Origin: a virus | Virus record (IMG/VR): IMGVR_UViG_3300036945_000814 | Location: 1 to 64,000 of that record | DNA: 64,000 nucleotides | Reading direction: 5' to 3' (one strand) | Shown here: positions 31,324 through 63,225 of the stretch, piece by piece | Position numbering within the stretch: position 1 is the first letter of the stretch | Layout of the letters: every line of letters begins with the position of its first letter | Notes under the pieces: model-generated | What the model was told of the DNA's origin: nothing | The model's database searches: none | What the model saw: the letters and a program-made list of their open reading frames with translations, nothing else | Translations under genes and position numbers: made by a program

Positions 31324-31331
31324 GAACAAGC

Positions 31332-39604: not shown

Positions 39605-42600
39605 ATGAGCCTGATCCTCGACCTCAAGAAAAGCGCCGCCATCCTGAACGCAGGCGGCGAGGGGCAAGAGAAGCGGTGGACGCGCTATCCGGGCGCCGCC
39701 AGCATGTTCAACGCCCGCGACGCCGAGCACCGCGAGACGCAGCGGCTCATGACGCAGATGCCCACGCCGAAGCTCGCCATCAGCGACGGCAACTTCACGA
39801 GCCCCGACGACGTGGTGAAGGGCCTCGGCTTTGGCGCCACCGACGAGACGTTGTGGGCGCACCGCGTGGCCCGCATGGTCGCCCGCGCGCCGAGCGAAAT
39901 GGCGCTGCGCAAGGCTGTCGTCGGCGACCTCCGCGGCGAGGCCCTTGAGCCCCCGCTGCGCGCCGAGCTTGGCCGCCGCATCCTCTCGCTGTACCGGCAG
40001 AGCGCCGGCGGCAAGCCGCTTGAGAAGGGCTTTCCGCCGAAGAAGGGCGCTCCGCCCGCCGGCGGCCGCCCGCCCATGATGGGCGCCCCCGACGAAGACG
40101 AGGGCAACAGCGCCGGCGGCGACGGCGCCGCCGGTCCCGCCCCGATGCCGAAGCCCGCGATGAAGCCGGGCGGCCCGATGGGCAAGCCCGCCTCTCTCGG
40201 CGGCAAGCCCGGCGAGGCCCCCGGCGGCGTCGGCCGCAACCCCGCCGTCGACGCCGCGGAGCTGACCGAGCTGCCCGACGACAAGAGCCTGTTGCAGAAC
40301 AAGATCCATGCGCTGCACGAAGACCTCAAGAGCTGCCAAGGCCCGATCACCGGCAACGCCGCGCTGATCCACATGCACAACGACATCAAGGCGCAGATGC
40401 GCGCCGCCTACCGCGATCCGAACCCCGAGATCGTGAGCGACATCGATCACAAGATCCATCACTTCAAGAAGATGCTCGAAGGCCCGCCCCCGCCCGAGGT
40501 CGACCCCAACGACCCCAACGCGCAGGGCGACCCCGGCGCCGGTGGCTACGGCGACCGTGGCGGCCCGCCCAAGCCCGGAGCGATGGCCGGATCCCCGCCC
40601 TCCGGCCGGCAGCCCGGCAAGCGCCCTCCGCCGCCGCCCATGATGGGCAAGAGCGAGCGCGCCAAGGGCGCCCGAAAAGGAGGGCCACCCCGCCCTTTTG
40701 ACCTTGGCCGCCGCGCGATTGCCGCGGCGGCCTTCGACGACTTCTGCAAGGGCGCCGGACACAAGTACCTGCGGCGCCTGCCGACGGGGAAGGCGAAGCC
40801 GCGCTATCGCTACATCTACAACGCCGCCAAGGCCGTCGACACCAAGGCGCGCCCGAGCGTCGGCGAGAAGATCAAGGTCGATCACAACGGACAGGCCGGT
40901 CACTACGAGGTGAAGCGCGTCATGCGCTCCGGGCAGGTCGAGATCCATCACGACGAGACGGGTCACCGCATGGTGATCCACCGATCCAAGCTGCACGACC
41001 TCGTGCGCGACGTCCACGCACCCGCCAAGCTCGACCGCCAGCTCGAAAACCAACGCCTCGACGAAGCGCACCGCAAGGTCGACATGCTTCCCCGATCCAA
41101 GCAGGGCGTGCTCGACAGTATCAAGGCCGCGAGCGGCATCGACGACCACGACCTCGCACAAGCCGACGCGGCCTACGCCGCGTGGAAGGGCCGCGGCCGC
41201 AAAGGCCCGAAGCCGACGCGCGCTGGCAAGGGCGGCGAGCTTGACTCGTTCTCCGGCGACCTCAAGCGCGGCAAGCACTACTCGTCGCTGCTCGAAGCGT
41301 TCGAGGTCGCCACCAAGGGCGCAAAGACGTGGCGCGACATCGCGCCCGTGATCCAACAGCTCCGCGAGGTGCCGGGATTCGAGAACGCGCACCTTCCCGA
41401 AGACGCCTTGCTGCGGCACGCGATGCAGGACCGGGAGCGCGAAGACGCCCCCGACACGCGCCGCGTGGACCCCGAGACGTATGGATCGACGCTGTCGAAC
41501 ACCGTCGATGACGGCGGCTTTGACTGGACGAGCGGCGAGCAGCACCCGGCCCTGTCCACGCCCTCGCAGCTCAAGGCGGCGAAGAAGCGCGCCGCAGCAG
41601 CGAAGAAGGCCGGCAAGGCCGCCGAGCCCGTCGCCCCGCCGCGCGAGGCCCCCGCCGTCGCCGACGACGAGCCCTACACGCCGTCGGACCCCGACGCCCC
41701 CGGCGCGGACAGTGGCGAGCCCGAGCCCGCCGGCGATGTTTCTTTCGACTTCGGCGCCAGCGCGCCCGACGAGCCCGATGAGTGGGGAACCGATATGTGG
41801 CGATCCGACGTGAACCTTGTCCTCGATCTGCGCAAGGCCGCGGACATTTTCGACGGCGTCTCCAAAGAGGAAGCGCGTGGCCTCGCCCGTGCGCTCAACG
41901 TCGACATGGGGAAGATCGATCTCGCACAGTGGAAGCGGGGCATCGCGCATGAGCGCGAGCACTCCGACCTCACCCGCGACCCCGTCAAGATCGCGCGCAT
42001 CGCTCTCGCCCACCTCAAAGAAGATCCATCGTACTACGTCAAGCTCGGCAAGATGGAGAAGGCCGACGGCGGCACCGTGACGATGAAGGCCCCCAAGGCG
42101 CCCGCGCCGCCAGCGCCAAAGGCCCCCGCTCCCGCCCCCAAGGCCCCGAGCGCGTCTCCCGCTCCCGCCGCCGCCCCCAAGCCCCCGAGCGCCCCCGCGC
42201 CGTCCGCAGGGGCATCCACGGCCGTCGGCCGGGCACCGAAGCCCCCGAGCGCCAGCGCGCCCCCGCCGCCGTCGGCGAAGCCGACGGCGCCCCCGCCGTC
42301 GAGCGCAGCAGCTCCGACCAAGGCCGGCCCGGCCCCGAGCGAGCCCGCGCACGCCAAGTTCCAAGAGCTGCAAGCCAAGCACGCCGAGGCCCTGTCGTCG
42401 CTCCAAAGCGCGCACGCCGCCATGACCGCGCACGCCGAGAAGCACGGCATCGCCATGCCCTCGTCGAGCGCGCCGCCGACGACGTCGAACGCACCGACGG
42501 CGATCTCGGGCAGCGGCCCGCGCGTCGACCACAGCGTCGCCCGCGGTCCAAGCTCGGCAGCGCCCGCCGCCCCGGCGGCGCACGATGACGACGTGTTCGC

Positions 42601-45600
42601 CCCCATCGGTTCCGGCGGAGGTGCCACCGGCGTCGCCCGCAAGACGCCCGCCCCCGGCAAGCCTGCCGCTGGCAGCGACGGCAGCGAGTTCAAGCACCTT
42701 TCCGGCCCCGTCTCCGGCGAGACGCCCGAGGAGTCGGTGCCCAAGGCCGACGGCATCCTCGCCCACGGCGTCGTCGGTCACACGTCGAGCGGCAAGCAGG
42801 TGTCGCTCGGCATGAACACCGACAAGCTCACGCCGCAGGAGGCGCACGAGGCGTCGTTGCTGCACCGTGACGCGCAGGAGCACTTGCTCAACGCGGCACG
42901 GCACACGGGCAACGCCGAGTACAAGACCGCCGCGCGTGCGCACCTCGACGCCGAGTTTTCGCACGCATCGAGCAGCGTGAGCGCGACCGCTCAAGCCACC
43001 GATCCGACTGAGCAGAAGCCGTGGGCCGGTCCCGGCGGAGGCGGGCCGGGCGCGCGCACCGCGGACGAGCACAAGCAGCAGGCGGCGGCCACGGACGCTG
43101 TCGCCGACAAGCACGAGGCGGCCGGAAACACCAAGCTGGCGACGGTGTACCGCACCGCCGCTGACGCATCACGCAAGGCAGCGGCCTCGGCCCCGGCGAA
43201 GCCCGGCGCGGCGCCTGCGGCGCACGATGACGACGTGTTCGCACCGATGGGATCGGCCACGAAGTCTCTGTCGGCGGTGTGGGATCGGTTGTCCGCGTGG
43301 CACCCGTCGCCCATGTGGGCGGGCGAGGACATCGGCATGAGCTTCGGCCACCTTCTGAGCAAGGCGATGGGCGTCGAGCAGGCCGGGCACAAGTACATCA
43401 AGCGCACAGCCAAGGCCGGCGGCGGGTACGACTACGTCTACGCCGACGAGCCCCACAGCAAGGAAACGCTCAAGGGTGCGCCCATCGGGTCGACCTTGAC
43501 GGCGCTGCACAATGGATCGTCGGCGACGTACACGAAGAAGGGCAAGGACGACTGGCACGGCGCCACCGGCGGCCCGATCTCGTCGGGATGGTTCGTGGGC
43601 AAGCCCGGAATGCTCACGCACGGCCCCGCACACCCCGAGCCCGTCCACGCGCCGGCGCCGGCGCCCGTCGCAGCTCCGCCGGCACCGAAGCCCACGGCCT
43701 CGAAGCCTGCCGGCAAGCCCGTGCAGGGCAGCCTGTTTGACATGCTGACGGCGCCCGCCCCGGCGGCCGAGCGCCCCAACAACTTCGAGACGATGCCCGA
43801 CAAGCCGGCGGCGTCACCGATGGCGGAGGCCGTGAAGGAAGCCGAGAAGCAGCCGGCGACGTTCGAGGTGCAGGCCGCTGCGGCCATCGACGACGCGAAC
43901 GCCGCCGACGACCGCGGCGACGAGGCCGCCCACCGCGAAGCAAGCAAGCGCCTCGCCGAGATCCGATCTGCGGCCGCCGAGGCCGAAAAGCCCGCAGCGC
44001 CCGAGCGCGACCGCCCCAACAACTTCGTCACCATGCCGGATCCCGAGCCCGGCGAGGCCAAGCCGAAGGCGCCGTCGGCCGCCGAGAAGACGAAGCGCGA
44101 GAAGTTCGAGGAAGCCAAGGCCAAGGCCGGCGCAGCCTCACCGATGGCCGAAGCGACGAAGGAAGCCACCAAGCAGCCCGCCGACGTGAGCGGCGCGTGG
44201 AAGCTCACCTACGACGCGGAGGCGGAAGACGCGGAAGAGGCCAAGATCAGCGAGCGCCACGCGAAGTTTCTGGAGGACAAGAAGAAGGCCCTCGCCGTCG
44301 CCGAACGCGCTCAAAAGAGCGCGCAGCACAGCATCGACTACGACAAAGAGCACTTCAAGATGAAGCGCGACGGCGTGCCGTGGGCCGCGAAGCCGACGCA
44401 GCTCAAGTCGCTGCAACTGCGCACCGCAGAGCTGGCGCACGCCAAGATGGATCTTGAGTACTCCACGCAGCGTTTTGCAGGCGCCGCCAAAGAGCGAGCG
44501 GAGCAGCGCGCCACCCGCAAGGCCGCCGCGGAGCGCCATGTGCGTGAAGCCCCGGAGCGCACGAAGGTCGCAGCCGCGGCCCGCGAGCGCATCGCCGCCG
44601 AAGAGGCACGCCAGAAGGCGGCCCGGCTCGTGATGACCGAGTCGACGAAGACCTCCCGCCAGCGCGAGCGCGAGACGGGTGAGCACATCGCCGCTTCGGC
44701 AAAGGACCGCTCAGACGAACGTCGCATGATCACGACGGGCGACCTTGGATCGATGACGTTCTCCGACGCGCACCGTCTCGTGAACAAGCGGAACGCGATG
44801 CCGGTCTACGGCGCCGACGAGTTCCAAGCCAAGGGCGCGAGCCCCGGCGCGGCCCACATGGGCCTCGCGCTGGCGAACCTCATCGCGCCGTCGCCGCCCG
44901 AGGACAGTGACGACGCCCGCCGCCGGTACCTTGAGGGCATCCGCCTCGTGCATGGCGTGCTGGACAGCGCGAACACCGTCGCCGACTACGCCGAGGCGCG
45001 CAAAGAGCTTGCGGCCATGCACAGCGGCGACAACGTCCCGAAGACGGAGATCCATTCAGCCGTCAAAAAGACGGCTGACGAAAAGGCGGCTGACGTCAGA
45101 AAATACCAAGCGGACTACCGCGCTTGGCAGTCCTCCCACAGCGGCACTCGCCCCGAGTCGCCGCAGGACTATCACGGCATCACCACCTACCCCGGAAACT
45201 ACATCCGCGAGGTGTTGACGCCCCGTGTGAAGGCGCAAGATCCAGACCTTGAGGTCGGCTACGAGTACGTCGATTCTGGCGGCGCCGGTGAGCGTCTGTC
45301 GTTCTTCACCTATTCCAAGTCGAGGAAAGAGGCGATGCGCAAGACCATCGACGCCCTCGGCAAGAGGTTCGTCGATCATGTGGTCGGCGACGGGAAGGTC
45401 TGGAACGACGCGAAGGCCAAGGCGCAGGAAGCCGAAGACATGGGCCTTGCCGGGTGGGATCACCTCGACAAGACCGACGAGGAAAAGGCACGAGCGCGGG
45501 AAGCCACCAAAGCCGAGAAGGCGAAGCTGGCGGAGAACGAGAGTGGCAGCGGCAAGGAAACCAAGCTCCGCTGGCGCCGGTCGATCTCGAAAAAGCCCGC

Positions 45601-46618
45601 CGTGATCGGCGCCAAGGTCACGATCACAGACTCGGACCCCGAGCGGTTCCGCAAGACCTTCAACTTCCGTGGCGAGCAGCCCGGCGAGGCCATCCCCGAC
45701 GCCGAGCTGAATCACCACCGCAAGTACGCCGAAATGGCGTTCCACGACCTCGCCGACGTGCTCGGCATCGAGCCCCGGCAGGTGTCGATGAACGGTCGGC
45801 TCGCGATGGCGTTTGCCGCGCGCGGCAAGGGCGGAGCGATGGCCCACTATGAGCCGGCGGAAAAGGTCATCAACGTCACCCGGTTCGCAGGTGCCGGTAC
45901 CGTCGCCCACGAGTGGGGGCACTTCATGGACAACATCGTCGCCGAGCTGCACCGAGGTGGGTCCACCAAGAGCGCCGTGTACGCATCCGCGGGTGAGGGC
46001 GAGGGGATGCCGGCGGAGCTTGCCGCGGCCTACGCGAAGTTCAACGCCGCGCTGAAAGAGCCGAACCCCAAGACGATCGAACGCTTGAAGAAGGATCACG
46101 CCGACCTCGACAAAGAGTACGAGGACACGCGGAAAATGCTGAGAGAACACCCCGCGAACACGAGGGCCGACAAGACACCCGAGCAGCGCAAGGCCGACGT
46201 GGACAGCTACAACGTGATCGTCAAGAACCTTGGGCACATTTCCACGCAGCAAAAGCTCATCCAAAACTTCCTGCGCAACCCGACGTCGGACTACATGCAC
46301 GACGCCATCGGCCGCGACGGCGGAAGGCGCGGCAAGTATTGGTCGAACCCGCAGGAGCTTTTCGCCCGCGCCTTTGAGAGTCATGTGCAGCACAAGCTCG
46401 AAAGCCAAGGCCGGCGCAACAGCTACCTCGTCGACGGCGCTGTCGGCCCCGGCAGCCCCTACCCGCAGGACGATGAGCTGTCGAAGATCCACGGCGCGAT
46501 CGGTGGCATCATCACGGCCATTCACGGCGCCAAGCTCTTCGAGAAGGCCCTCAAGGCGCTATCGTCTGTCCCGCTGACGGCGCGGCGGCGCGGCCCCAAG
46601 CTCGTGATCGCCGCTTAG
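39605..46618 (+). CDS. giant polyvalent protein (2337 aa) with DUF5661-like module and C-terminal LPD1 (HExxH) domain
   Basis: GIAHEREH...IALAHLKEDPSYY (about 41840-42055); AFHDLADVL...LAMAFAARG...AHYEP...AHEWGHFMD...YWSNPQELFARAFE (about 45640-46480). Confidence 0.8.
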   Translation: MSLILDLKKSAAILNAGGEGQEKRWTRYPGAASMFNARDAEHRETQRLMTQMPTPKLAISDGNFTSPDDVVKGLGFGATDETLWAHRVARMVARAPSEMALRKAVVGDLRGEALEPPLRAELGRRILSLYRQSAGGKPLEKGFPPKKGAPPAGGRPPMMGAPDEDEGNSAGGDGAAGPAPMPKPAMKPGGPMGKPASLGGKPGEAPGGVGRNPAVDAAELTELPDDKSLLQNKIHALHEDLKSCQGPITGNAALIHMHNDIKAQMRAAYRDPNPEIVSDIDHKIHHFKKMLEGPPPPEVDPNDPNAQGDPGAGGYGDRGGPPKPGAMAGSPPSGRQPGKRPPPPPMMGKSERAKGARKGGPPRPFDLGRRAIAAAAFDDFCKGAGHKYLRRLPTGKAKPRYRYIYNAAKAVDTKARPSVGEKIKVDHNGQAGHYEVKRVMRSGQVEIHHDETGHRMVIHRSKLHDLVRDVHAPAKLDRQLENQRLDEAHRKVDMLPRSKQGVLDSIKAASGIDDHDLAQADAAYAAWKGRGRKGPKPTRAGKGGELDSFSGDLKRGKHYSSLLEAFEVATKGAKTWRDIAPVIQQLREVPGFENAHLPEDALLRHAMQDREREDAPDTRRVDPETYGSTLSNTVDDGGFDWTSGEQHPALSTPSQLKAAKKRAAAAKKAGKAAEPVAPPREAPAVADDEPYTPSDPDAPGADSGEPEPAGDVSFDFGASAPDEPDEWGTDMWRSDVNLVLDLRKAADIFDGVSKEEARGLARALNVDMGKIDLAQWKRGIAHEREHSDLTRDPVKIARIALAHLKEDPSYYVKLGKMEKADGGTVTMKAPKAPAPPAPKAPAPAPKAPSASPAPAAAPKPPSAPAPSAGASTAVGRAPKPPSASAPPPPSAKPTAPPPSSAAAPTKAGPAPSEPAHAKFQELQAKHAEALSSLQSAHAAMTAHAEKHGIAMPSSSAPPTTSNAPTAISGSGPRVDHSVARGPSSAAPAAPAAHDDDVFAPIGSGGGATGVARKTPAPGKPAAGSDGSEFKHLSGPVSGETPEESVPKADGILAHGVVGHTSSGKQVSLGMNTDKLTPQEAHEASLLHRDAQEHLLNAARHTGNAEYKTAARAHLDAEFSHASSSVSATAQATDPTEQKPWAGPGGGGPGARTADEHKQQAAATDAVADKHEAAGNTKLATVYRTAADASRKAAASAPAKPGAAPAAHDDDVFAPMGSATKSLSAVWDRLSAWHPSPMWAGEDIGMSFGHLLSKAMGVEQAGHKYIKRTAKAGGGYDYVYADEPHSKETLKGAPIGSTLTALHNGSSATYTKKGKDDWHGATGGPISSGWFVGKPGMLTHGPAHPEPVHAPAPAPVAAPPAPKPTASKPAGKPVQGSLFDMLTAPAPAAERPNNFETMPDKPAASPMAEAVKEAEKQPATFEVQAAAAIDDANAADDRGDEAAHREASKRLAEIRSAAAEAEKPAAPERDRPNNFVTMPDPEPGEAKPKAPSAAEKTKREKFEEAKAKAGAASPMAEATKEATKQPADVSGAWKLTYDAEAEDAEEAKISERHAKFLEDKKKALAVAERAQKSAQHSIDYDKEHFKMKRDGVPWAAKPTQLKSLQLRTAELAHAKMDLEYSTQRFAGAAKERAEQRATRKAAAERHVREAPERTKVAAAARERIAAEEARQKAARLVMTESTKTSRQRERETGEHIAASAKDRSDERRMITTGDLGSMTFSDAHRLVNKRNAMPVYGADEFQAKGASPGAAHMGLALANLIAPSPPEDSDDARRRYLEGIRLVHGVLDSANTVADYAEARKELAAMHSGDNVPKTEIHSAVKKTADEKAADVRKYQADYRAWQSSHSGTRPESPQDYHGITTYPGNYIREVLTPRVKAQDPDLEVGYEYVDSGGAGERLSFFTYSKSRKEAMRKTIDALGKRFVDHVVGDGKVWNDAKAKAQEAEDMGLAGWDHLDKTDEEKARAREATKAEKAKLAENESGSGKETKLRWRRSISKKPAVIGAKVTITDSDPERFRKTFNFRGEQPGEAIPDAELNHHRKYAEMAFHDLADVLGIEPRQVSMNGRLAMAFAARGKGGAMAHYEPAEKVINVTRFAGAGTVAHEWGHFMDNIVAELHRGGSTKSAVYASAGEGEGMPAELAAAYAKFNAALKEPNPKTIERLKKDHADLDKEYEDTRKMLREHPANTRADKTPEQRKADVDSYNVIVKNLGHISTQQKLIQNFLRNPTSDYMHDAIGRDGGRRGKYWSNPQELFARAFESHVQHKLESQGRRNSYLVDGAVGPGSPYPQDDELSKIHGAIGGIITAIHGAKLFEKALKALSSVPLTARRRGPKLVIAA

Positions 46619-46620
46619 GC

Positions 46621-46657
46621 GTCTCACGGTTGACACTACGAATGGAGCGCCTACAAT
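46621..46657 (+). promoter_or_regulatory. sigma70-type promoter GTCTCA-nnn-TTGACA-N16-TACAAT
   Basis: Near-consensus; shares the GTCTCA element and 16-bp spacer with the early cassettes. Confidence 0.75.
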
Positions 46658-46664
46658 GGTTCGC

Positions 46665-49600
46665 ATGACCACACACGACACCATCGAAGACGCTTCCTTC
46701 GGTTTGCTGCTCAAGGCCGACATCGACGACGCCCTCGACGATCTCGAAAAGGCTTTCGGGTCGGAGCGGGCCGGCCACAAGTACAGCTCCCGCCGACGCA
46801 ACGCGAAAGGCGAGTGGGAGTACGAGTACGCCACCGACAAGACGAAGGCGCACGCGCAAATGGCGTTCACCTTCGCCGCGGCGCACGGCACCCCCGAGCA
46901 GCAGGATCGCGCCCTCGACGTGCTCAAGCGCGTCGAGCCGGACAGGTGGCCCGACCACGTCCACGCGGCCAACGTCGCGCACGAGGCCGCGGTCATCCAC
47001 GCGGCGAACGTCGCCCACGAAGCGGCCGCCCGACCCCTGCCACCATCGCCAGCGCACGAGCACAGCCCCCCGGCCGCCGCCGCGCCCCCTGCCGTCGTGA
47101 GGTTCACGCAGGGCGAGCCCAAGCCCGCCGTCGCCGCGGCCCGTGCGCTGGATGCCTCCCGTGCGAGCCTGATCCGCGCTGGCATCGGCCTGCGCGCCAA
47201 CGCAGAAGAGAAGACCCCTATCGAGGCCGTGGCCGGCCGCGCGGCCGCGCTTCGCAGCTCCGCCTCGTCGCTTTTCAATGAGTCGATCCGCATGGGCATC
47301 GTGAACGACGACCCGCGCACCGCGCGGAAGTTCACGGCCGAGGAACATCGGGCGCTGGCCGCCGCGCACACCGCCCTCTTCGACGAGTTCCGCGAGCTGT
47401 ACGCGCGCTCGATGACGATGCGCATTCGCCCGCCCTCCGGCATGACCGCCGCCGACGCCGATGCGCTCCGCTCCCAGCTCGAACGCGACTTCAAGGGGCA
47501 CGCCAAGCTCGCTCAAGCCCACAACGACGCCGCCAACGCGGCGTCGGGCAAGCCCGCACCCGCGGCCGCTGTGCCGCTCGTGGTCGCGCCTGTGGCGACT
47601 TCGGTCGCTCCGGCGCTGGACGCCGGCCCGGTGCAGCTCATGGACGCCGCCGCCCGCCTCATCGCCGAGCGTGCGAGCGGCGCGCCGCCGGCGTTCAAGG
47701 CCGTCGACAACAACCGCGTCACCATCGGTGGCGTCAAGATGATCGTGCAGGGTGGCTTCCTCGGCGACGCTCCCGCGCACCGCGCGTGGGCGGAGACGGC
47801 CGGCACGTTCTCGGCCGACGCGCAGCACTTCGACGGCGGCCGGGCCTACCGCGTCGCCACCGAGGCGGAGCGTGTGGCCGCCGTGGCGATGATCCCGCGT
47901 CTCCGCGGCTCCGTGAACGTCAACGCGCCCGCACCGGCCCCTGCCCCGGCGCCCGTCGTCGCCGAGCCCGTGCGCCCCGTCGACGACTTCACCGGCGCGT
48001 TCAGGGCGCTGAGTGACGGCAGCGGCGCCGAAGAGATCGTGACGCTCCCGTCGGGATCCAAGATCGGGCTGTCCTACGTCAGCGGACAGGCCAAGGCGCG
48101 CCCCGTCGGAGGCGGCATCGGCCGCAAATGGGATGCGACCGCGACGAAGCGCGCCCTCGCCGCCTTCGAGGCCAAGGTCGCCGCCCTCGGCCCCGCGTGG
48201 CACGCCGCCCACAACGCCATGTACGGCGTCGCCGCCGCCCCGACGCCGCTCGTGGTGGCGCCCGTGGAGACGGCCGCGCCGAAGCGCAAGCGCGCCAACA
48301 ACTTCGAGACGATGCCCGACGGCGACAGGCCCAACAACTTCGACACGATGCCCGAGGAGATCAAAGACCCGTCGCCGCGCGCCACAAAGATCCGAGAAAA
48401 CCGCGAAGCTCGCGAAGCCGAAGCCGCGTTGGAAGCCGGAGCCGAGCGACTGACGGGCGAAGAACGCCACGCCGCCCTGACCCGCATGGGCCAACACTTG
48501 CACGAGGTGCAGGACTTCCGGGCCGGCAAAGACGACACGGGCATGAGCGGCGCCGACATGCTGACGTGGCGCCGATCGACCACCGCACCCCGCAAGGCCA
48601 GCGTCCTCCGCAAGTACCGCCGCCAGCTCGTCGAGAGTTTCGGCGACCTCTACTTCAAGGCCGGGCTGCACGAGAAGGAGCCGATCCCCAAGGGGCACGT
48701 TCCTGCCGTCGGCGAATGGACCGAGCGCGGCGGGCTCGTCATCAAGGCCGACGGCTACCTCGGGACGAAGTTCAACGCATGGAAGAACCTGCTCAAAGAG
48801 CACGGCTTTCGCTGGAATGGATCACGCGGCGACGAAAGCGCCGACGGGATGCACGCAGAGAAGGCGGCGCTGCTCGACATCCCCGGCTTCATCGAGGCGG
48901 CGAACAAGATCGGGATCCATGTCGAGATCCCCGAGAAGCCCGAGGTCGCCCTCGATGCGCCAGCGGCGGCCAACGAGCCCGAGGCGCCCCTGCCCACGCC
49001 CGAGCGGCCGTCGGCGGATCGCCCGACGACCACCGAGGACACGCAGCGGGTCATCAACGCCATTCGCGCCAAGCAGGGCCAGCGCGGCACCGTCGCCGTC
49101 ACCGTGAAGCCCGACGGCAAGTTTGCTTTCTACGCCGTCGACTACCGCAAGACCGAGGTGCCCGGCTCGTTCAACCACATCATGTCGAACAAGAACGGGC
49201 AGATCACCGGGCTCATGGAGGTCGACTCCAAGGACGCTTTCTCGCGCACCACCTACGACGCCGCCCTCGTGACCGAGGCGCTTGGCAAGCTCCGCGACGC
49301 CAACCCGACCTTCCATTTCTACATCGACCCGAAGGCCGCCGCCGCCATCGACAAGGCCGGCGCCGACAAGGCCGCAGCCGAGAAGCCGATCCCAGAAGTC
49401 GAGGCCCTGCTTGCCGACGGCTTCGCGCTCAAGCCCTACCAGAACGCGATGGTGCGGTTCCTCGACAGCAACGACGGCAACGCCATCGTCGGCGACGAAA
49501 TGGGCCTTGGCAAGACGCTGCAATCGCTCGCGTGGGTGGCGAAGAACAACAAGAAGGCCATCGTCGTCGTCCCCAAGGTCGTGCGCCGCACTTGGATCGA

Positions 49601-50987: not shown

Positions 50988-51017
50988 AGTAGATCCGTTC
51001 ACCCCCGAGGACCGCCC

Positions 51018-53276: not shown

Positions 53277-53284
53277 GAGCCCGC

Positions 53285-55416: not shown

Positions 55417-55461
55417 CATCGGATCTCAACACTACGGGCGTGCCCCGAAGGAGAAGCAGCA

Positions 55462-55866: not shown

Positions 55867-56141
55867 GCGACCGCGGCGCCCCAAAGGCCCGCATTCGCGT
55901 CGAGCTTTCGCCCGGCGTCGTGGCAACGCACGATGTCCGGGCGAAGCTCGTTTCACAGGTGGCCGCACAGCTCGGCGTCGACCCGCACGCGGACTGCACG
56001 CACGGCGACCTCGAAAAGAGCGACAAGCCGGCGCCAAAGCTCCGGCACCGCGCCCCGCAAGAGGGCATCGAGCAGGCAGTCAGGCTCTATGAGGCCATGC
56101 TGCGCGCCATGATCGACGACATCGCCGCGGCCTTGAAGTAG
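55863..56141 (+). CDS. hypothetical protein
   Basis: GTGA coupling; contains LEKS. Confidence 0.6.
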   Translation: MSDRGAPKARIRVELSPGVVATHDVRAKLVSQVAAQLGVDPHADCTHGDLEKSDKPAPKLRHRAPQEGIEQAVRLYEAMLRAMIDDIAAALK

Positions 56142-56162
56142 CGTCGCGGAGGAGATTCCCCC

Positions 56163-59100
56163 GTGGCGCTGTGGACTGCCGATCAGCTTGCGAAAGTCCG
56201 CGCCGTCATCGCGCGGCACCATGCGGCGATCACCATCGCCATCTTCGGACACAAGGCCCTGCCCGACGACCTCGTCAAAGACCTCCGGGCCTCCGGCATC
56301 CCCGTGCCCACCGGCCCGCAGCTCATCGACGACGCCTTCACCTACGGGCAGCTCGTTGCCCTCCTTCGCGATCCGAAGCTCGCCACCAAGAGCCCCGCCG
56401 AGATCGCCGAGCTTGTGGCCGCCCGCAAGATCCCGTTGCAGCTCACGCCGTCTGAGAAGGCCGCCGTCGAAGTCGCGCGCACGCACGCCGGGCAGTACGT
56501 CGTCGGCCTCGGCACCCGCGTCGCGGGGCAGGTCATGGCCGCCGTCACCGGCGCCGAGGCCAACCTCACCCCCGAGCGCATGGTCGAGATCATTCAGGAC
56601 AAGACCGCCGGCAACCTCGCCCGGCGCGAGACGATCGACAGCCTGAGATCCGACCTCGGGCACGCGATGGGCAACTGGACCCGCGACTGGCAGCGCATCG
56701 CGATGACCGAGTCGAACAACGCGATCCAAGAAGGCACCGCGGCCACCATCGAGAAAGAGCACGGCGTCGACGAGCTTGTGTCGAAGATGCCGCGCCCCGA
56801 CGCCTGCCCGGACTGCAAGCGCCTGTACCTCCGCGGCGGCGAGCCCATCATTTTCAAGCTCTCCGAGCTGCGTGCCAACGGCAGCAACGTCGGCCGAAAG
56901 AAGCGCGACTGGAAGCCGACCATCGAGGCCGTCCACCCGTGGTGCGGATGCGTGCTCGTGCGAATCCCCGCGGGCATGGTCTGGGAGGACGGCGAGCTTG
57001 TCGTCGACAAGGCGGAGAAAAGCCAAGCGGGTATTGAAATGCCCGCCCGGCCCGCATTTCAATACCCGCTGCGGAAAGCCGCCCGCAAGCTCCACGGTCG
57101 CCTCACGTTTGCCGGGATGCCGATCAGCATCGAGAACCGCCGGGGCTCGTTCCGCCATTGGTTCGACCCGGTCGCCAAAGAGCACGGCAAGACCAAGGTG
57201 CTTTTCCCCTACGGCTACATCCGGCTCACCGAGGCCGCCGACGGCGACCACGTCGACGTCTACGTCGGCCCGCTCAAGACGGCGCCCAACGTCTACGTCG
57301 TCCACCAACGCAAGAAGAAACCGGATGGATCTTTCGGCGGCTACGACGAGGACAAGGCCATGCTCGGTTTCCCGTCGGCCAGCGCGGCGAAGCGGGCCTA
57401 CCTCGCGCACTACAGCGACCCGAGATTCTTCGGGGCGATGACGACCATGACCGTCGCCGAGTTCAAGGTAAAGCTCGTGGAGAACCGGGGGCGAAAGATC
57501 ACGAAGGCATGGCGCGAGCCGACGGCGCTCGTGATCGACATGCTGGCGAAGAGCTATGCCCCGTGCGTGCGCTGTGGCGAAATGTCGAAGGAGTCGAGCA
57601 GCGACGGCGCCGAGCCGTGCTGGACGTGTCGCAAGGCGCTCGAAGCCGCCGGTACGCCCTACGTTCGCGCCGGGTGGAAAGACGGCGTGGAGCTGGCGAA
57701 AGCCGGCGGCCCGTACATCGGCCCCAAGGGCGGCAAATGGGCCGACCCCGAGCACACCGTTGCGTGGCAAGAGCCCGGCGGCGTCGAGAGCCTGCCCCAC
57801 CTTGAGGACGAAAAATGGGATGACGGCACCGTCGTTCGCTGGCGGCAAAGCCCGTTCGTTCACGCGCCGCCCCGGTCAAAGCCGCAGCTCCCGTCGTCAA
57901 CGCCAACCTCGATCGAGCACGTTCCCCTCGACAAGCTGCACGCAACGCAGAAGCGCGTCACCGAGGGGGGCGTGCAGAAGTACCTCGACAAGCCGTTGAA
58001 CGCGGCCGCCGACGACAAGCTCGATCTCCCGCTCGTCACCGTCGACAAAGACGGCAAGCACTTCATTCAGGACGGGCACCACCGTCTCACGGCCGCCAAG
58101 CTCCGCGGCGAGGCGTCCGTTCCCGTCCGGGTGCAGCGAGAAAAGGCCGAGGAGAAGAAAACGCACGAACCGCTGGCGCCCGACTACGAGCCGAAGGTCG
58201 GCGACGAGCACGCGATCCCCGGCCCGCACGGCATGGCCGCGTTCACGGCGCGCATCGAGCACGTCGGCGACGACCATGTGCGGATCTCGCAGAACCACGG
58301 CGACGAGCGTCGCGGCACAGGGGCTCACGGTACAAGGGTGCCGAAAGCGGCGGTGTCGCACTTCGTCAACGACCTCCGCGGCGTCGTTCACGGCCCGCCG
58401 TCGAGCGACCCGCGCGTGCAGGCGGTACTCGACGGCAAGGCCGAGCACCTTGGCAAAGGCGACGACGGCATCGCCTTCCGCGTCGGCGACACCGTCGTCA
58501 AGGCGTCGACGACGGTGCCCTACCAACCGTTCAACGAAAACTACTTGACGCCGGCGACGGCGGCCGAGCGCATGGTCGAGCAGGTGAACACGTCGAACGC
58601 GATGCACGCCGACGGCGTGCCCGGCATCATGCGTTCCGAGCTTGTCCACAACGGCGACAAGGCGTTTCAGATCAAGCCCTACGTCGAGATCCCCGACAAG
58701 CTCACCCGCGAACAACTCGACAGCGTCGCCGATTCAGTGCTCAAGGCGCACGCCGCCGGCTACACGTTCAACGACGAGATCCAAGTAGGCGTTCACGAGG
58801 GCAAGCTCGTTCACTTCGACACCGGCAAGGCGGCGAAGGCGCCCGACGAGAAGCGCCTCAAAGAAAGAGCCGAAGACGACGAGGAACGCCTCAAAGACCT
58901 CTTCGCCAAGCACGGCGAGAAGTTCCAGACGACGAAAGAGAAGCACAACCCGCTCATCGAGTGGGAGGAAATGGCGTCGCGAGATCCAAAGAAGATGACA
59001 GATGCCGAGCGCAGCAAGCACGCCTCGCTTCTGTGGATGCACAGCCTCAAGGTGAAGTCGTTTCGCGATCGGGCTGATCCCGTCGACAAAGACTTCTACG

Positions 59101-59621
59101 ACGTGGTCTACAACAACCAAGAGATCGAAGACGCCATCAATCGGTTCAAGTCGCCGATCCGAGAAGCCATCGACGTGCTCAAGTCTGCGTTCGATTCCAT
59201 GAGCGCCGGTGAATCCATCGAGCAGCTTGGCCGCTCGACGTCGCGACTCGGTATGATGAGCTGGCGTGGAAACGAAGACTCACCCCGGCCCGAGCGCCCC
59301 GCGGACATCGTCGGGATCACCGACGACATGGGGCTCACCGTCAAGGGGCGGAAGAAGCGAAAGAAGAAGCACGCCGAGGACAAAGCCGACGCGCGACGCA
59401 GCCGGTTGTCGCCCGCAGACCGCTTCGCCGCCGCCAAGCGGATGCCCAAAAAGGACGCCGTGAAGCCCCTCGCCCCCGACGCGCTCAAGGAAGCCCGTGA
59501 GCAGTCGCGAGACGCCGTGGAAGCCAAGCGCGAGCGCATCCGCGACGACCTCGCTCGGCGGCAGGCGAACAAGCCCCCGATGGATCCCATCCGCATTGCG
59601 CGAGCGAAGGGAGAATCGTGA
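56163..59621 (+). CDS. MuF-like head morphogenesis protein fused to inorganic-pyrophosphatase-like, ParB-like and kinase-like domains
   Basis: RIAMTE...ACPDC...HPWCGC; SIENRRGS...YGYI...DGDHVDVYVG...DEDKAMLGF; LHATQ...DGHHR; LGKGDDG...VVK...HFDTG. Confidence 0.8.
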   Translation: MALWTADQLAKVRAVIARHHAAITIAIFGHKALPDDLVKDLRASGIPVPTGPQLIDDAFTYGQLVALLRDPKLATKSPAEIAELVAARKIPLQLTPSEKAAVEVARTHAGQYVVGLGTRVAGQVMAAVTGAEANLTPERMVEIIQDKTAGNLARRETIDSLRSDLGHAMGNWTRDWQRIAMTESNNAIQEGTAATIEKEHGVDELVSKMPRPDACPDCKRLYLRGGEPIIFKLSELRANGSNVGRKKRDWKPTIEAVHPWCGCVLVRIPAGMVWEDGELVVDKAEKSQAGIEMPARPAFQYPLRKAARKLHGRLTFAGMPISIENRRGSFRHWFDPVAKEHGKTKVLFPYGYIRLTEAADGDHVDVYVGPLKTAPNVYVVHQRKKKPDGSFGGYDEDKAMLGFPSASAAKRAYLAHYSDPRFFGAMTTMTVAEFKVKLVENRGRKITKAWREPTALVIDMLAKSYAPCVRCGEMSKESSSDGAEPCWTCRKALEAAGTPYVRAGWKDGVELAKAGGPYIGPKGGKWADPEHTVAWQEPGGVESLPHLEDEKWDDGTVVRWRQSPFVHAPPRSKPQLPSSTPTSIEHVPLDKLHATQKRVTEGGVQKYLDKPLNAAADDKLDLPLVTVDKDGKHFIQDGHHRLTAAKLRGEASVPVRVQREKAEEKKTHEPLAPDYEPKVGDEHAIPGPHGMAAFTARIEHVGDDHVRISQNHGDERRGTGAHGTRVPKAAVSHFVNDLRGVVHGPPSSDPRVQAVLDGKAEHLGKGDDGIAFRVGDTVVKASTTVPYQPFNENYLTPATAAERMVEQVNTSNAMHADGVPGIMRSELVHNGDKAFQIKPYVEIPDKLTREQLDSVADSVLKAHAAGYTFNDEIQVGVHEGKLVHFDTGKAAKAPDEKRLKERAEDDEERLKDLFAKHGEKFQTTKEKHNPLIEWEEMASRDPKKMTDAERSKHASLLWMHSLKVKSFRDRADPVDKDFYDVVYNNQEIEDAINRFKSPIREAIDVLKSAFDSMSAGESIEQLGRSTSRLGMMSWRGNEDSPRPERPADIVGITDDMGLTVKGRKKRKKKHAEDKADARRSRLSPADRFAAAKRMPKKDAVKPLAPDALKEAREQSRDAVEAKRERIRDDLARRQANKPPMDPIRIARAKGES

Positions 59622-59839
59622 GGTGCCCCGAGTGCAACGCGCAGCTCATGCAAAAGAGCGAGGGCAAGCTCAAGCTGCGCGTGCCGATCCTCGTCTTTTC
59701 CGCCGACGGCGAGTCGTGCGTCACCAACTGCCAGCGATGCAAGGCAGAGATCCCCCTGCCCCTCACGCTCGCAAAAAGCGCGGTGCCCGCGGATGAACCG
59801 CCACCGCGGCTCGTCACCACGCGCTTGACGCGGTCGTGA
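59618..59839 (+). CDS. small Zn-ribbon protein
   Basis: CPEC...CQRC; GGAG SD. Confidence 0.7.
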   Translation: MRCPECNAQLMQKSEGKLKLRVPILVFSADGESCVTNCQRCKAEIPLPLTLAKSAVPADEPPPRLVTTRLTRS

Positions 59840-59899
59840 TCCAGACCCTAGCCTGACCATCGACACCCAATGGCCTTGACCACGAACGGTCAAAAGAGG

Positions 59900-59938
59900 C
59901 GGGCGGTACAGCGAAAGCTGCGCCGCCCGTTTTCGTTT
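59900..59938 (+). terminator. GAAA-tetraloop hairpin plus U tract immediately before the protease RBS
   Basis: CGGGCGGTACAGC-GAAA-GCTGCGCCGCCCG-TTTTCGTTT. Confidence 0.65.
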
Positions 59939-59951
59939 CAGGAGATCCATT

Positions 59952-60794
59952 TTGCAGGAATCAGACGCTCCGGCATTCAACTTCGACTTCGACATCGAAG
60001 TGTTCGAGAAGGCCGGCGTCGCTCCTGAGAAGGCGCGCCGCATCGGCGGCTTCGTGTCCACGAGCGCCCTCGACAAGCAGGGCGAGCGCGTCTTGCAGGA
60101 AGGGCTCGACTTTTCCCCGTTCCTGCAAGACGGGTGGTTCAACGACAACCACAGCAAGGCCACCGCCGACATCGTCGGCTTCCCCGAGACGGCCAAGCTC
60201 ATCCGCAAGGGCGAGCGCCTGCCGAGCGGCACGTCGGCCGACAAGACCGGATGGTTCGTCGAGGGCTACCTCCTGCAAGGGCACCCGCCGAGCGACCGTA
60301 TCTGGGAGCTGGCGAAGGCGTTGCAGAAGACGCCGCGGCGTCTCGGGTTCTCCGTCGAGGGCCGCGTCACGCAGCGGATGAACAAGGCCGGCGAGCCCAT
60401 CGTCGCCCGCGCCGTCGTCAAAAACGTCGCGGTCACCAACTGCCCCGTCAACAATCAGACGTCGCTCGAAGTGCTCGCCAAGAGCCTGAGCGCCATCGAA
60501 ATGAGCAAGGCGCTTGAGGTCGGGCCGCCGCCCGGTCCCGCGAGCGACCCCGGCTCCATCCCCGCCGGCGTGCCCCTGTCGGGCATGGGCGCGGGCCGCG
60601 TGCTCATGCCTGAGTCGATCGGCGGCTACGCCGGCGCCTTCGGCAACCCCAACGGTGCGCAGCCCCGGAAGAAGAAGAAGAAGAAGCTCACCAAGAGCGC
60701 CGCGTTGGATCTCATTCACAGCCGCTATCCGGGCATCACCAACCACACGGCGGCGCGGATCTTCCGCTTCGCTGTCGCACACGCCTCTCACTGA
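59952..60794 (+). CDS. prohead protease (SPO1/Twort-like)
   Basis: GFVST..LDKQGE...GLDFS...FNDNH, LGFSVEG, VAVTNCPVN; AGGAG SD before a TTG start. Confidence 0.9.
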   Translation: MQESDAPAFNFDFDIEVFEKAGVAPEKARRIGGFVSTSALDKQGERVLQEGLDFSPFLQDGWFNDNHSKATADIVGFPETAKLIRKGERLPSGTSADKTGWFVEGYLLQGHPPSDRIWELAKALQKTPRRLGFSVEGRVTQRMNKAGEPIVARAVVKNVAVTNCPVNNQTSLEVLAKSLSAIEMSKALEVGPPPGPASDPGSIPAGVPLSGMGAGRVLMPESIGGYAGAFGNPNGAQPRKKKKKKLTKSAALDLIHSRYPGITNHTAARIFRFAVAHASH

Positions 60795-60814
60795 GAGAGC
60801 AGGAGAAGAACCAC

Positions 60815-61723
60815 ATGGCGAAGAAGCACCCCACCCTCGACACCGAGCCCCTTTTCAAGAGCGACGACGGCGACCTCGACGACGAGCCCGGTATGCCCGA
60901 AGCCGAGGACGCCGACGAGGACGACGAGGACGAGGACGGCGACGGCGTCGACGACGAGGAAGAGGAGCAGATGAAGTCGGATCTCACCGAGGACACGCTC
61001 ATCAAGGCGCTCGACGAGATGGACAGCATCGCCGTCGCCGCGTCCAACGGAATCTCGCCGCGGGAGCAGGCCCTCGCCTCCAAGCTCGCGTCTGGCACCC
61101 CCCTCACCAAGTCGGAGCGTGCCGAGCTGGCCGCGGCCGGCGAACCGATGGCCAAAAGCCACAAGGAGTCTTTCGTGGAGAATCCGCAGATCGCGCAGGG
61201 TTTCGAGGTTTCCGAGTTCCTCGACGCCGCGCTCACCAAGGTCGCCGAAGCCCTCGACACCAACCGCGAGGAAATGACCAAGTCCTTCGGCGAGGTCGGC
61301 GAGTTCAACCGCGCCCTCGCCAAGTCGCTCAACGCCCTCGGCGCCGTCGTCATCGCGCAGGACAAGAAGATCCGGCAGCTCGAAAAGAGCCTCGCCGGTG
61401 AAGCTCCCCGGCGCGTGGTCGAAGCGGCCCCCGCCAAGGGCGTCACCTCCTCGCGCAGCTCCGTCGGCCAGCGGGTCAACGACAGCGGCGGGATGCGCAA
61501 GTCGCAGGCCGCCGGCGGCGCCACGCTCACCAAGGGCATGATCCTCGACACCCTCGACGATCAGATCGCCAAGAGCGACGGCCAGCGCGGCGTGGTCGAC
61601 GGCGTCGACCTCGTGCTCGAAAGCTCGCGCTACGAGACGACGCAGCTCCTCTCCCCCGACGCCATGCGCCTCGTCTGCAAGGCGCGCGGGATCGACCCCT
61701 CCACCCTCGGGCTGAACGGCTGA
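60815..61723 (+). CDS. scaffolding-like protein
   Basis: Acidic and helical, between protease and MCP, about 11 xxK[SAG] motifs. Confidence 0.75.
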   Translation: MAKKHPTLDTEPLFKSDDGDLDDEPGMPEAEDADEDDEDEDGDGVDDEEEEQMKSDLTEDTLIKALDEMDSIAVAASNGISPREQALASKLASGTPLTKSERAELAAAGEPMAKSHKESFVENPQIAQGFEVSEFLDAALTKVAEALDTNREEMTKSFGEVGEFNRALAKSLNALGAVVIAQDKKIRQLEKSLAGEAPRRVVEAAPAKGVTSSRSSVGQRVNDSGGMRKSQAAGGATLTKGMILDTLDDQIAKSDGQRGVVDGVDLVLESSRYETTQLLSPDAMRLVCKARGIDPSTLGLNG

Positions 61724-61785
61724 TCGCCGGCTGAATCCCGTTCACGACCACCGTTCACTTCACAGAAGATCCAAGGAGAATCACC

Positions 61786-63225
61786 ATGAGCTACGGTACT
61801 TTTGTCGGCGCTTCCGACTACGACGGCATCGAAGGCTTCGGCTCGGCGAGCGCCGAGGAAATGCAGAACCTCAACAAAGCCTTGCGCTCCGGTCAGGACC
61901 GCAACGCCCCCGGCACCGTCGTCGCTGGCGACGGCTTCACCCTCAAGCCTGAGAGCTTGGATCGCACGTTGAAGAACGTGACGTACCGGATGGAGCACAT
62001 CCAGTTCTGGAAGTTCCTCGACAAGACCCCGGCCTACAACACGGTCGAGGAGTACAGCCGGCTCCGTGAGTACGGCAACGGCGTCGCGGCCTTCATCGAG
62101 GAAGGCGAGCTGCCCGCCGAGGACGACGCGACCTACTCGCGTGAGTTCAACATCGTGAAGTACATGGGCACGACCCGGCGCATCACGCATGTGATGCAGA
62201 CCGTGCGCACCCACATCGGCTCCGCGGTCGCGCAGGAGACGGTCAACGGCACCATGTGGCTGCTCCGGCAGGTCGAGAAGGCGCTGTTCTACGCCGACTC
62301 GTCGATGGTCCCGGCCGAGTTCGACGGCCTCTTCACGCAGCTCGAAGCGCAGTCGCCGAACATCGTCGACATGCGCGGCAAGCCGCTCAACCAAGACGTG
62401 ATCGAGGAAGCCGCGCACGTCATCCGGGCTTCGCCCAACTACGGCATCCCGACGGATCTGTGGATGGCCGACGGCGTCTACAGCGACCTCGCGCGCCTGT
62501 TCTACCCCACGCAGCGCAGCGAGATCCCGACCCCGGCCAGCGCCGGTGACGGGTACGTCGGCTTCGCGGTGAAGGGGATGCGCACGCAGGCCGGCCCGAT
62601 CCGGTTCCAGCCCGACGTGTTCATCGAGCCCGGTCGCGCCCCCGCGGCCGCTGGCATCGGCGACATCGCCAAGCGCCCCGGCCTCCCCACCATCGGCGTC
62701 GCCGCCGCTGGCGCCCCCGGTGGCGGTGAGGTGTCCCTGTTCGTCGGCGCCAGCGAGGACTTCCGCTACCGCGTGGTCGCGAAGAACCGCTACGGCCTGA
62801 GCGTCCCCGTGGACGTGAACGGCGGCGCCGCGATCACCGTGGCCGCCGGCCAGAAGGTGTCGTTCACGATCACCGACGGTTCGCCGTTGGCCTCGTGCTA
62901 CGTCATCTACCGCACCAAGGCGAACGGCCTGCTCGTCGACGCCGTCGAAATGATCACCGTGCGTCGCACCGGCGCCGTCACGGCTTTCGGCGATCTCAAC
63001 AAGGATCTGCCCGGCACCACGAAGGCCGCGCTGTTGCAGGGCAACCGCGAGAACATCATGGTCAAGCAGCTCGCGCCGTTCACGCGCATCCCGCTCGCCA
63101 CCGTCGACACGTCGATGCGTTGGTCGCAGGTGCTCTACCTGACGCTCACCCTGCACAGCCCGAACAAGAACGTGCTGTTCAAGAACGTCGGCCGCATCGA
63201 GGGCACCAAGAACCTCGCCGTCTGA
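61786..63225 (+). CDS. major capsid protein (SPO1/Twort-like)
   Basis: LNKAL, LKPESLD, YNTVEEY, FYADS...EFDGL, DMRG; AAGGAG SD. Confidence 0.93.
   Translation: MSYGTFVGASDYDGIEGFGSASAEEMQNLNKALRSGQDRNAPGTVVAGDGFTLKPESLDRTLKNVTYRMEHIQFWKFLDKTPAYNTVEEYSRLREYGNGVAAFIEEGELPAEDDATYSREFNIVKYMGTTRRITHVMQTVRTHIGSAVAQETVNGTMWLLRQVEKALFYADSSMVPAEFDGLFTQLEAQSPNIVDMRGKPLNQDVIEEAAHVIRASPNYGIPTDLWMADGVYSDLARLFYPTQRSEIPTPASAGDGYVGFAVKGMRTQAGPIRFQPDVFIEPGRAPAAAGIGDIAKRPGLPTIGVAAAGAPGGGEVSLFVGASEDFRYRVVAKNRYGLSVPVDVNGGAAITVAAGQKVSFTITDGSPLASCYVIYRTKANGLLVDAVEMITVRRTGAVTAFGDLNKDLPGTTKAALLQGNRENIMVKQLAPFTRIPLATVDTSMRWSQVLYLTLTLHSPNKNVLFKNVGRIEGTKNLAV

Follow-up and report, generated by a model that had tools for sequence, protein, structure and literature searches.

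Candidate prohead-protease sites at the leaders and module junctions of giant polyvalent proteins in a phage with an SPO1-type head module

The prohead protease of bacteriophage T4, gp21, follows an L/I-x-E code; leaders end in this tripeptide site, the scaffold is cut many times, and the cargo proteins IPI-III and Alt enter the prohead, undergo trimming and are injected together with the DNA. An arrangement that may be comparable, with Lys as the residue preceding the cut, is described here for the first 64 kb (the window) of a 107,025-bp IMG/VR virus record from an uncultivated phage, IMGVR_UViG_3300036945_000814, that is rated complete by CheckV. The system in question comprises four giant proteins of 2337, 1443, 752 and 1152 residues, the second being an SNF2 helicase protein, together with the prohead protease encoded downstream of them. 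It is proposed as the probable reading of the sequence that the giants are polyvalent cargo, that an SPO1-type prohead protease would trim and partly cut them inside the prohead, and that the products would be kept there and leave with the DNA.

The roles of the T4 propeptides are summarized in PMC10052503. In phiKZ, 201phi2-1 and SPN3US, gp245 (A-X-E) processes capsid, portal, protease and ejection proteins, some of which are cut repeatedly, and nine substrates with 14 sites were established in SPN3US by mass spectrometry (PMC10052503). For polyvalent proteins, the passages of Iyer et al. (2017) that deal with them predict packaging and delivery as well as autoprocessing by a zincin domain, and cite DarA and DdrB of phage P1 as anti-restriction cargo, some of it polyvalent, that is proteolytically processed and put into the head (PMC5512222). 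Those passages contain no prohead-protease code or leader tags, and the strings "HKY" and "linker" are absent from the text (PMC5512222).

The locus resembles T4 in its short N-terminal leaders ending in a prohead-protease site and in its site-rich scaffold. It differs in that the protease, a member of phrog_1028, is not of the gp21 type (Peptidase_S77), in that P1 is Lys and not Glu, and in that the putative cargo is giant, mosaic and multi-enzyme and carries internal sites and N-terminal tags that would be retained. With the phiKZ group it has in common a single code in capsid, portal, protease and candidate cargo proteins; unlike in that group, where processing is mostly the removal of N-terminal propeptides, sites also lie between exchangeable enzyme modules, the motif is another one and the genome measures 107 kb. 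The giants are like the polyvalent proteins of Iyer et al. in their domains (LPD1 zincin, DUF5661, SNF2, the pyrophosphatase domain InPase, ParB-like), head-gene context and extreme mosaicism: at least two effector or enzymatic parts were found in the 2337-aa (DUF5661 and HExxH/LPD1), 1152-aa (InPase, ParB-like and kinase-like) and 1443-aa (SNF2 with further modules) chains, the genes lie beside packaging and head genes, and domains are shuffled among relatives. To the P1 Dar proteins, head cargo with proteolytic processing, the likeness is a descriptive one. With Herelleviridae (SPO1 gp3.2, gp3.3 and gp6.1; A511 Cps) the locus shares a homologous protease, scaffold and capsid protein, a site-rich scaffold and a putative leader cut after Lys; the putative A511 scaffold gp85 is not enriched for the P3 motif. 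SPO1 differs from the window in having no giant gene between portal and protease, the rest of SPO1 and A511 not having been searched for polyvalent cargo. Viewed by analogy, the scheme is the head-cargo processing logic of T4 and phiKZ applied to polyvalent proteins of the Iyer type. The elements that appear to be new are the link between the polyvalent class and an SPO1-type Lys code, the mini-leaders, the retained GHKY and GPYIGPRGGKW tags and the series of fused versus split genes, all of which are described below.

A lysine code in the core head proteins

The window has a G+C content of 67% with every gene on the + strand, and a DNA-level search of the GenBank phage collection revealed no close phage. 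Its phrog_1028 protease adjoins the scaffold and a phrog_752 capsid protein, an SPO1/Herelleviridae-type head maturation module. The protease is ∼40% identical to Herelleviridae proteases, and the best SPO1-type matches of the major capsid protein (MCP), from Bacillus phages, show 32-34% identity to it. Three relatives were collected via the capsid protein, with MCP identities of 94% (G002 and G003) and 77% (G001); a more distant complete phage of 105 kb, G004, has an MCP identity of 46%. A related-locus search seeded with the scaffold gave no match. Neighborhoods of homologues were taken from IMG/VR loci only.

Candidate sites were counted with a strict motif, [LMF]xK[AS], and a loose motif, hydrophobic-x-K-[SAG], and expected numbers were obtained from within-protein shuffles (an arrow marks the predicted cut). 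The strict motif was present six times in the protease (0.5 expected, z 7.7), eight times in the scaffold (0.6 expected, z 9.5) and twice in a 73-aa ORF preceding the protease gene (0.1 expected, with equal values in G001 and G002), which amounts to 16 sites versus 1.3 expected when the three are pooled (z 13). Site-rich scaffolds were also observed in G001, G002, G004, SPO1 and the cultured Bordetella phage vB_BbrM_PHB04 (PHB04). The SPO1 scaffold gp3.3 contains 11 hydrophobic-x-K-[ASG] sites and the SPO1 protease eight, with 1.3 and 1.6 expected, respectively; the corresponding PHB04 values are eight versus 1.6 for the scaffold and six versus 1.4 for the protease.

The MCP leader carries the site MQNLNK↓A (nt 61870-61881; LNK↓A, aa 29-32), which by eye appears to align, as NLNK↓A, with DALNK↓A of SPO1 and lies near the annotated ALK↓S cut of Listeria phage A511. 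In the RefSeq record of A511, mature Cps is annotated from residue 24, after QEDALK↓S, with Leu at P2, not P3. Near its two ends the portal has candidate sites for trimming, LAK↓G at aa 53 and VQK↓S at aa 559, and terminal sites are also present in the portals of G004 and PHB04. The background claim in a first-pass annotation of the window, namely that SPO1/Twort-type capsid precursors are cut after Lys, stands because of the sites in the SPO1 scaffold, protease and leader and the A511 record, with the caveat of the Leu position in A511. For the SPO1-type prohead protease, a code with Lys at P1 is real and found throughout the family. As judged from these patterns, the head protease most likely cuts after Lys in hydrophobic-x-K↓[S/A/G].

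That annotation had also noted such motifs in almost every protein of the region. Every motif checked was found in place, including LRKA at nt 41828 and MEKA at nt 42053 on either side of DUF5661, LRKA at nt 57069 and ITKA at nt 57498 on either side of InPase, the motifs at the ends of the 2337-aa, SNF2, 752-aa, portal and protease proteins, LNK↓A of the MCP and 11 loose copies in the scaffold. A strong excess, however, is confined to the protease, scaffold and 73-aa ORF, and for long proteins the mere presence of motifs does not go beyond chance. The strict motif was present seven times in the 2337-aa protein (4.1 expected, z 1.5), three times in the SNF2 protein (2.7 expected), four times in the 752-aa protein (1.4 expected, z 2.2) and three times in the 1152-aa protein (1.7 expected). 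Pooled, the giants are barely enriched, with 17 strict sites versus 10.0 expected (z 2.3) and 32 loose sites versus 25.5 (z range 1.3-2.3). The outcome for the giants is thus borderline; elsewhere in the genome the strict motif occurs at 1.2 times expectation in early genes and 0.75 times in the tail half. The same pattern, core head proteins rich and giants near expectation, recurs in G001, G002, G003 and G004.

Counts so close to the composition expectation are what would be seen if only the core head proteins (capsid protein, scaffold, protease and perhaps portal) were substrates and the matches in the giants were due to chance or lineage inheritance. A position-specific scoring matrix of site flanks, trained on head-core sites of relatives, points the same way: it did not separate cargo from control sites (p 0.45), a result that is partly confounded by scaffold composition. 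The signal in the giants is positional, not numerical.

Positions of the sites in the giant proteins

In BLAST comparisons of the window with G001 and G002, the giants proved to be mosaics: modules that are joined in one protein are separate or located elsewhere in another, as was also observed in G004 and the proteins P0001-P0028. Breakpoints between modules were defined from the window-G001/G002 alignments, independently of the sites. Ten of the 20 breakpoints had a site within 10 aa, compared with 2.3 expected, and none of 5000 simulations gave a value as high. No breakpoint enrichment was observed with seven control motifs (R, E, D or Q at P1; a non-small P1'; a non-hydrophobic P3). The earlier remark that sites often lie at domain borders is thus borne out statistically. 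The core motif marks the N-terminal leaders and a subset of the module junctions of the giants and is conserved in relatives of 46-94% MCP identity.

A module of ∼22 residues, GH[KR]Y(I/L/V)xR-x(3-6)-G-x-[YW]-x-Y-x-Y, here termed GHKY, is found four times in the window (His codons at nt 40760, 43388, 46776 and 51081), each time just downstream of a site. It has no Pfam entry among the precomputed lists, and a full-text literature search for IGPRGG and GHKYI/GHKYL gave no relevant paper. A search seeded with GHKY retrieved 28 polyvalent proteins with LPD1, Zeta-toxin, RelA/SpoT, InPase, SNF2, ParB or DUF5661. A site was present within 30 residues upstream in 39 of 41 GHKY sequence clusters, the background being 0.17; of the two exceptions, one has a site at -33, and in the other the module is at residue 5 of its protein. 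Site and module are separated by 4-33 residues, often rich in Gly, and this variable spacing speaks for a site that lies outside the GHKY fold. Frequently, a pair of sites surrounds an acidic amphipathic spacer of ∼12 residues, K↓SxDxLDxLxxLxK↓A. Other tags that follow sites are of the GGPYIGPKGGxW and GW.PIPGGHKGG types; the former is internal in the 1152-aa protein (aa 514) and stands 11 residues from the N-terminus in a G004 protein.

Short N-terminal leaders ending in a protease-type site were identified in the 2337-aa, SNF2 and 752-aa proteins and in PHB04. Among 139 polyvalent proteins, 49% have a site within the first 28 residues, compared with a background of 15%. Internal InPase domains, 114 of which were present in a survey of 120 homologues, are flanked on both sides in 72 cases, by LEK↓AxKLHGR just before the domain and MIK↓A 10-14 residues after it, and on neither side in 15.

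Those 15 proteins (P0056, P0084, P0091, P0092, P0094, P0102, P0104, P0107, P0108, P0110, P0111, P0116, P0130, P0139 and P0144) all have K-[TKQE]-[AS] on the N-terminal side of the domain and K-[IV]-A on its C-terminal side, flanks that may represent a second junction code. Two complete records of 177-195 kb with 46-61%-identical relatives of P0094 are without a phrog_1028 protease. Stand-alone InPase genes, which occur in many phages (L057, L058, L087-L091 and L099-L102), end in PAMIK↓A plus a hydrophobic tail of 8-14 residues, for example ALVLFLAARPAN, ALLFRLPAAG or ALVVFPAAQ..., and from its sequence this tail may be a removable C-terminal loading peptide.

In the 2337-aa protein, a Pfam DUF5661 match (aa 758-819, nt 41876-42061) precedes a zincin-like part that comprises an intact HEWGH at aa 2102 and LPD1 at aa 2238-2306 (nt 46316-46522). 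Candidate cuts fall after K9, K382, K744, K819, K1253 and K2314, and breakpoints of high-scoring segment pairs (HSPs) to relatives lie at aa 379, 745 and 1256. The ∼95-aa module at the first GHKY copy is common to 10 other proteins, with HSP starts at aa 372-382. The HSPs to P0001 and P0002 stop exactly at aa 745, and in these proteins the same site precedes a GHKY module instead. Other DUF5661 proteins end in a similar manner, with DPxYYxKLxxIEK↓A, and continue directly into InPase. A PDB sequence search with the 2337-aa protein gave only noise. DUF5661 itself contains an HExxH-like motif, AHEREH at aa 781-786 (window about 41945-41962), which is EHELEH in homologue P0035; as far as the sequence suggests, this ∼65-aa domain might be a metal binder or a minimal zincin remnant.

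In the N-terminal part of the SNF2 protein, a GHKY module (nt 46773) comes after two sites in tandem, LLK↓A (nt 46707) and LEK↓A (nt 46743), and the C-terminal sites are IEK↓S (nt 50922) and LIK↓A (nt 50967); these terminal sites are kept in four of four homologues. In the 752-aa protein, a GHKY module (nt 51060-51143) comes after the leader MSTNEATALLNDSPLLK↓SDDG, which resembles EPLFK↓SDDG of the scaffold; three more sites, at nt 52695, 52938 and 53076, are C-terminal. Matching sites were observed in the G002 homologue.

The 1152-aa protein consists, in order, of a conserved N-terminal domain (aa 1-285, with a CxxC...HPWCxC signature in the alignment consensus), InPase (aa 311-437), a small Cys-rich piece, a ParB-like part, a kinase-like part and a helical tail. 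A GGPYIGPKGG leader and the ParB-like part start at aa 514. Among the domain names assigned in the first-pass annotation, LPD1, SNF2 and InPase are confirmed by Pfam, whereas the ParB-like identity is weak and the kinase-like fold (about aa 661-1008) gave only weak matches when the whole AlphaFold model was compared by Foldseek. In this model, built from a 30-sequence alignment with a mean predicted local distance difference test score of 66.6, 5-6 of the protein's 10 sites are in linkers. The sites after K305, K448, K463, K513 and K1007 are in or at low-confidence linkers, whereas K728, K765, K780 and K861, which are away from breakpoints, sit in strands or a helix of a folded domain. The split matches the ∼5 chance matches expected in this protein, and the four in-fold sites are, on the model, probably chance matches. 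The N-terminus was also considered as a MuF/SPP1 gp7 minor head protein, which was rejected as no Phage_Mu_F match was obtained even at E 5 with aa 1-310 or 30 homologues; in PB1-like phages, InPase homologues carry the annotation of minor head or virion protein. G001 has the N-terminal domain of its 1152-aa homologue as an ORF of its own (366 aa, 26250-27350 of the reverse-complemented stretch), with a 19-nt overlap with ORF 27332-32296 (1654 aa), in which SNF2 and InPase are fused. A frameshift, either programmed or caused by a sequencing error, could account for this overlap, or the gene could truly be divided at a module border.

Several observations weigh against cleavage of the giants. 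About half of the breakpoints are without a site, as is the whole of aa 1253-2314 in the 2337-aa protein, where only the K1253 and K2314 columns are conserved across all six homologues. Interior matches of the SNF2 protein are not conserved, and its C-terminal sites are lost in G001 exactly where SNF2 joins further modules. A remnant, LDLKK↓AG, in G001 is located 2 aa from a C-terminus, where cutting serves no purpose. MEK↓A lies inside the DUF5661 Pfam profile and the N-flank site of InPase inside the InPase profile, so some sites may be domain features. The unconserved SNF2 interior and the in-fold sites of the 1152-aa protein add to the counts and the flank scores in favor of core head proteins being the only substrates. 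Set against that alternative are the enrichment at junctions with null controls, the coupling of sites to GHKY, the over-representation of leaders, the two site columns kept in six of six LPD1 homologues and the PHB04 leaders on separate genes, which fit the code (see below), and it is considered distinctly unlikely.

A second alternative is that the motif is a docking or targeting element for the scaffold, portal or capsid interior, or a conserved cap at module ends, and not a cut site. The presence of LVLDLxK at extreme N- and C-termini, where a cut would remove only 2-9 residues, would be consistent with this, as would the location of the InPase and DUF5661 end motifs partly inside Pfam profiles and the end of the stand-alone InPase, in which MIK↓A and a hydrophobic tail resemble a loading peptide. 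However, A511 Cps is annotated as cut at this very tripeptide, the motif is packed into scaffolds, which proheads are expected to degrade, and the distance to the next module, being variable and Gly-rich, speaks against a folded unit. Docking and cutting are also compatible: the T4 targeting sequence does both. A purely docking or capping role is therefore regarded as unlikely, and trimming with partial cutting of the giants by the prohead protease as the better account.

Separate cargo genes and the identity of the cutting enzyme

The portal-protease interval of PHB04 contains separate genes for RelA/SpoT, a Ser/Thr phosphatase, InPase, a 2097-aa methylase and a 1518-aa helicase. Four of them, namely RelA/SpoT, InPase, methylase and helicase, start with VIVFLK↓A, VGAVVLLK↓A, MIILLTK↓A and MKPILFLK↓A, and the InPase gene ends with PAMIK↓ALVLFLAARPAN. 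By analogy, these mini-leaders look like T4 capsid-targeting sequences written in a Lys code. A literature search revealed no proteomics for PHB04 or its relatives.

The covariation of sites with candidate enzymes was surveyed in InPase-bearing IMG/VR records of at least 80% completeness, which were searched for phrog_1028 and LPD1. All 16 records with a site-flanked InPase have a phrog_1028 protease. This protease is present in two of the 5-6 records whose InPase is without such flanks, a group in which complete genomes of 195 and 202 kb lack it. The association of flanks with the protease has a hypergeometric p of ∼0.008, a value that is uncorrected for shared ancestry. LPD1 was found in three of 19 code-bearing records and in neither of the complete G004 and PHB04 records. 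The contrast between 16 of 16 for phrog_1028 and three of 19 for LPD1 favors the prohead protease as the cutter. Furthermore, the core P3/P1/P1' pattern of the cargo sites equals that of the scaffold and capsid-leader sites.

These data bear on a third alternative, in which the giants are cut by another enzyme, either the zincin-like peptidase that the cargo itself carries (HEWGH plus LPD1) or, once ejection has taken place, a protease of the host. The 2337-aa protein does have an intact HExxH and LPD1 helix, autoprocessing is predicted in the passages of PMC5512222 on polyvalent proteins, and cargo and scaffold sites are unlike each other in their flanks. Given the rarity of LPD1 among code-bearing records, the constant presence of phrog_1028 and the common core pattern, another cutter is judged very unlikely.

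A Peptidase_S77 match in the 195-kb phage with a site-less InPase was rejected as a false positive on a fiber-like protein. S77 was searched for in two other records only, with no true S77 found, and the window protease is of the phrog_1028 type. In nine InPase records (G020, G039-G041, G047, G048, G050, G052 and G054), the phrog_1028 match is broken by a single in-frame TGA, which could reflect recoding, read-through or the protease/scaffold junction.

Gene order and proposed scheme

The gene order is amidase, TerL, 2337-aa protein, SNF2 protein, 752-aa protein, portal, three small ORFs, 1152-aa protein, 73-aa ORF, protease, scaffold and MCP (Table 1). Two zinc-ribbon-like CxxC pairs are present in the 73-aa ORF, which overlaps the 1152-aa gene at its stop and is kept in G001 and G002. 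G001 TerL (L018-L020; ORF 12792-15746 of the reverse-complemented stretch) has 984 aa, compared with 563 aa in the window, with ∼360 extra residues between the parts that match aa 6-76 and aa 51-560; the extra residues could be an intein or a homing-endonuclease insertion. AT skew (A over T) is 0.26-0.30 across window 40001-52000, which spans giant cargo genes, and 0.04-0.19 in the first 40 kb of the window. A 101-aa ORF at window 28000-28305 (+) contains 33% Ala and 19% Lys, with a GC3 of 0.99, a composition of the histone-H1-like DNA-binding type.

Table 1. Coordinates of the head-region genes and of sites in the 2337-aa protein (positions in the window)
Feature	Position (nt)	Strand	Remarks
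Amidase	36812-37912	+	
TerL (563 aa)	37909-39600	+	
2337-aa polyvalent protein	39605-46618	+	Pfam DUF5661 and LPD1
N-terminal leader MSLILDLKK↓S of the 2337-aa protein	39623-39634	+	LDLxK↓[SAG] recurs in cargo proteins of G000, G001 and G002; resembles PHB04 leaders
Site FCK↓G, then GHKY module 1 (GAGHKYLRRLPTGKAKPRYRYIY)	40742-40831	+	∼95-aa module starts here
Junction site LVLDLRK↓A	41828-41839	+	13 aa upstream of DUF5661
MEK↓A at the C-terminal edge of DUF5661	42053-42064	+	
Site LSK↓A, then GHKY module 2	43355-43453	+	Site column kept in 6/6 LPD1-family homologues
FEK↓A, 23 aa before the C-terminus	46538-46549	+	Kept in 6/6 homologues
1443-aa SNF2 helicase protein	46656-50987	+	Pfam; helicase region about aa 925-1349
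752-aa protein	51018-53276	+	Member of no known family
Portal protein	53285-55045	+	Pfam and PHROG
1152-aa polyvalent protein	56163-59621	+	InPase
73-aa Cys-rich ORF	59618-59839	+	Two sites, MQK↓S and LAK↓S
Prohead protease, SPO1 type	59952-60794	+	phrog_1028 at 2.9e-41
Scaffold	60815-61723	+	11 hydrophobic-x-K-[SAG] sites, chiefly [LM]xK↓S
Major capsid protein, SPO1 type	61786-63225	+	phrog_752 at 3.7e-81

The observations can be explained by the following scheme. The giant precursors would enter the prohead, where the prohead protease would remove the leaders and tails of all four. The 2337-aa and 1152-aa chains would be split solely where a joint is marked, each giving an estimated 4-6 pieces. 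Predicted pieces of the former are about aa 10-382, 383-744, 745-1253 (perhaps cut once more at 819) and 1254-2314, and the latter would be cut at about aa 305, 448/463, 513 and 1007. The cleaved products would stay in the head and leave with the DNA. We infer the identity of the cutter, the packaging and the ejection from sequence patterns, positions and conservation. The first-pass annotation had envisaged the giants as polyproteins cut into separate enzymes. The motif at leaders and some joints is consistent with this, but half of the breakpoints, aa 1253-2314 and the SNF2 interior are without (conserved) sites. Given that many borders have no site, the scheme is one of leader and tail trimming with partial segmentation, and not of one cut per enzyme.

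A more general reading is offered tentatively, as a possibility that falls short of being probable. Cargo of one large polyvalent class would be written in a common grammar, in which a hydrophobic or acidic leader is followed by hydrophobic-x-K↓[S/A/G], an optional tag and an enzyme module, and which is read by the prohead protease. The optional tags would be basic-aromatic (GHKYxxR..YxY, GPYIGPRGGKW, GW.PIPGGHKGG), and, being retained at the N-termini, would be signals for holding the products on the DNA or capsid wall or for tail exit. As prohead processing would restore discrete proteins, cargo genes could be freely fused, split and swapped, and the code at the junctions would differ between phage lineages in step with the family of their protease.

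If the proposed processing is correct, polyvalent proteins would be pre-packed sets of injected enzymes whose borders are readable from sequence. The mature products would then be predictable from metagenomes, and the ease with which these genes are fused and split would be explained. Attention would be drawn to small leader and tag peptides, which could serve to load foreign proteins into phage heads. For the polyvalent class, the published idea of autoprocessing would be replaced with one that is directly testable in the cultured phage PHB04.

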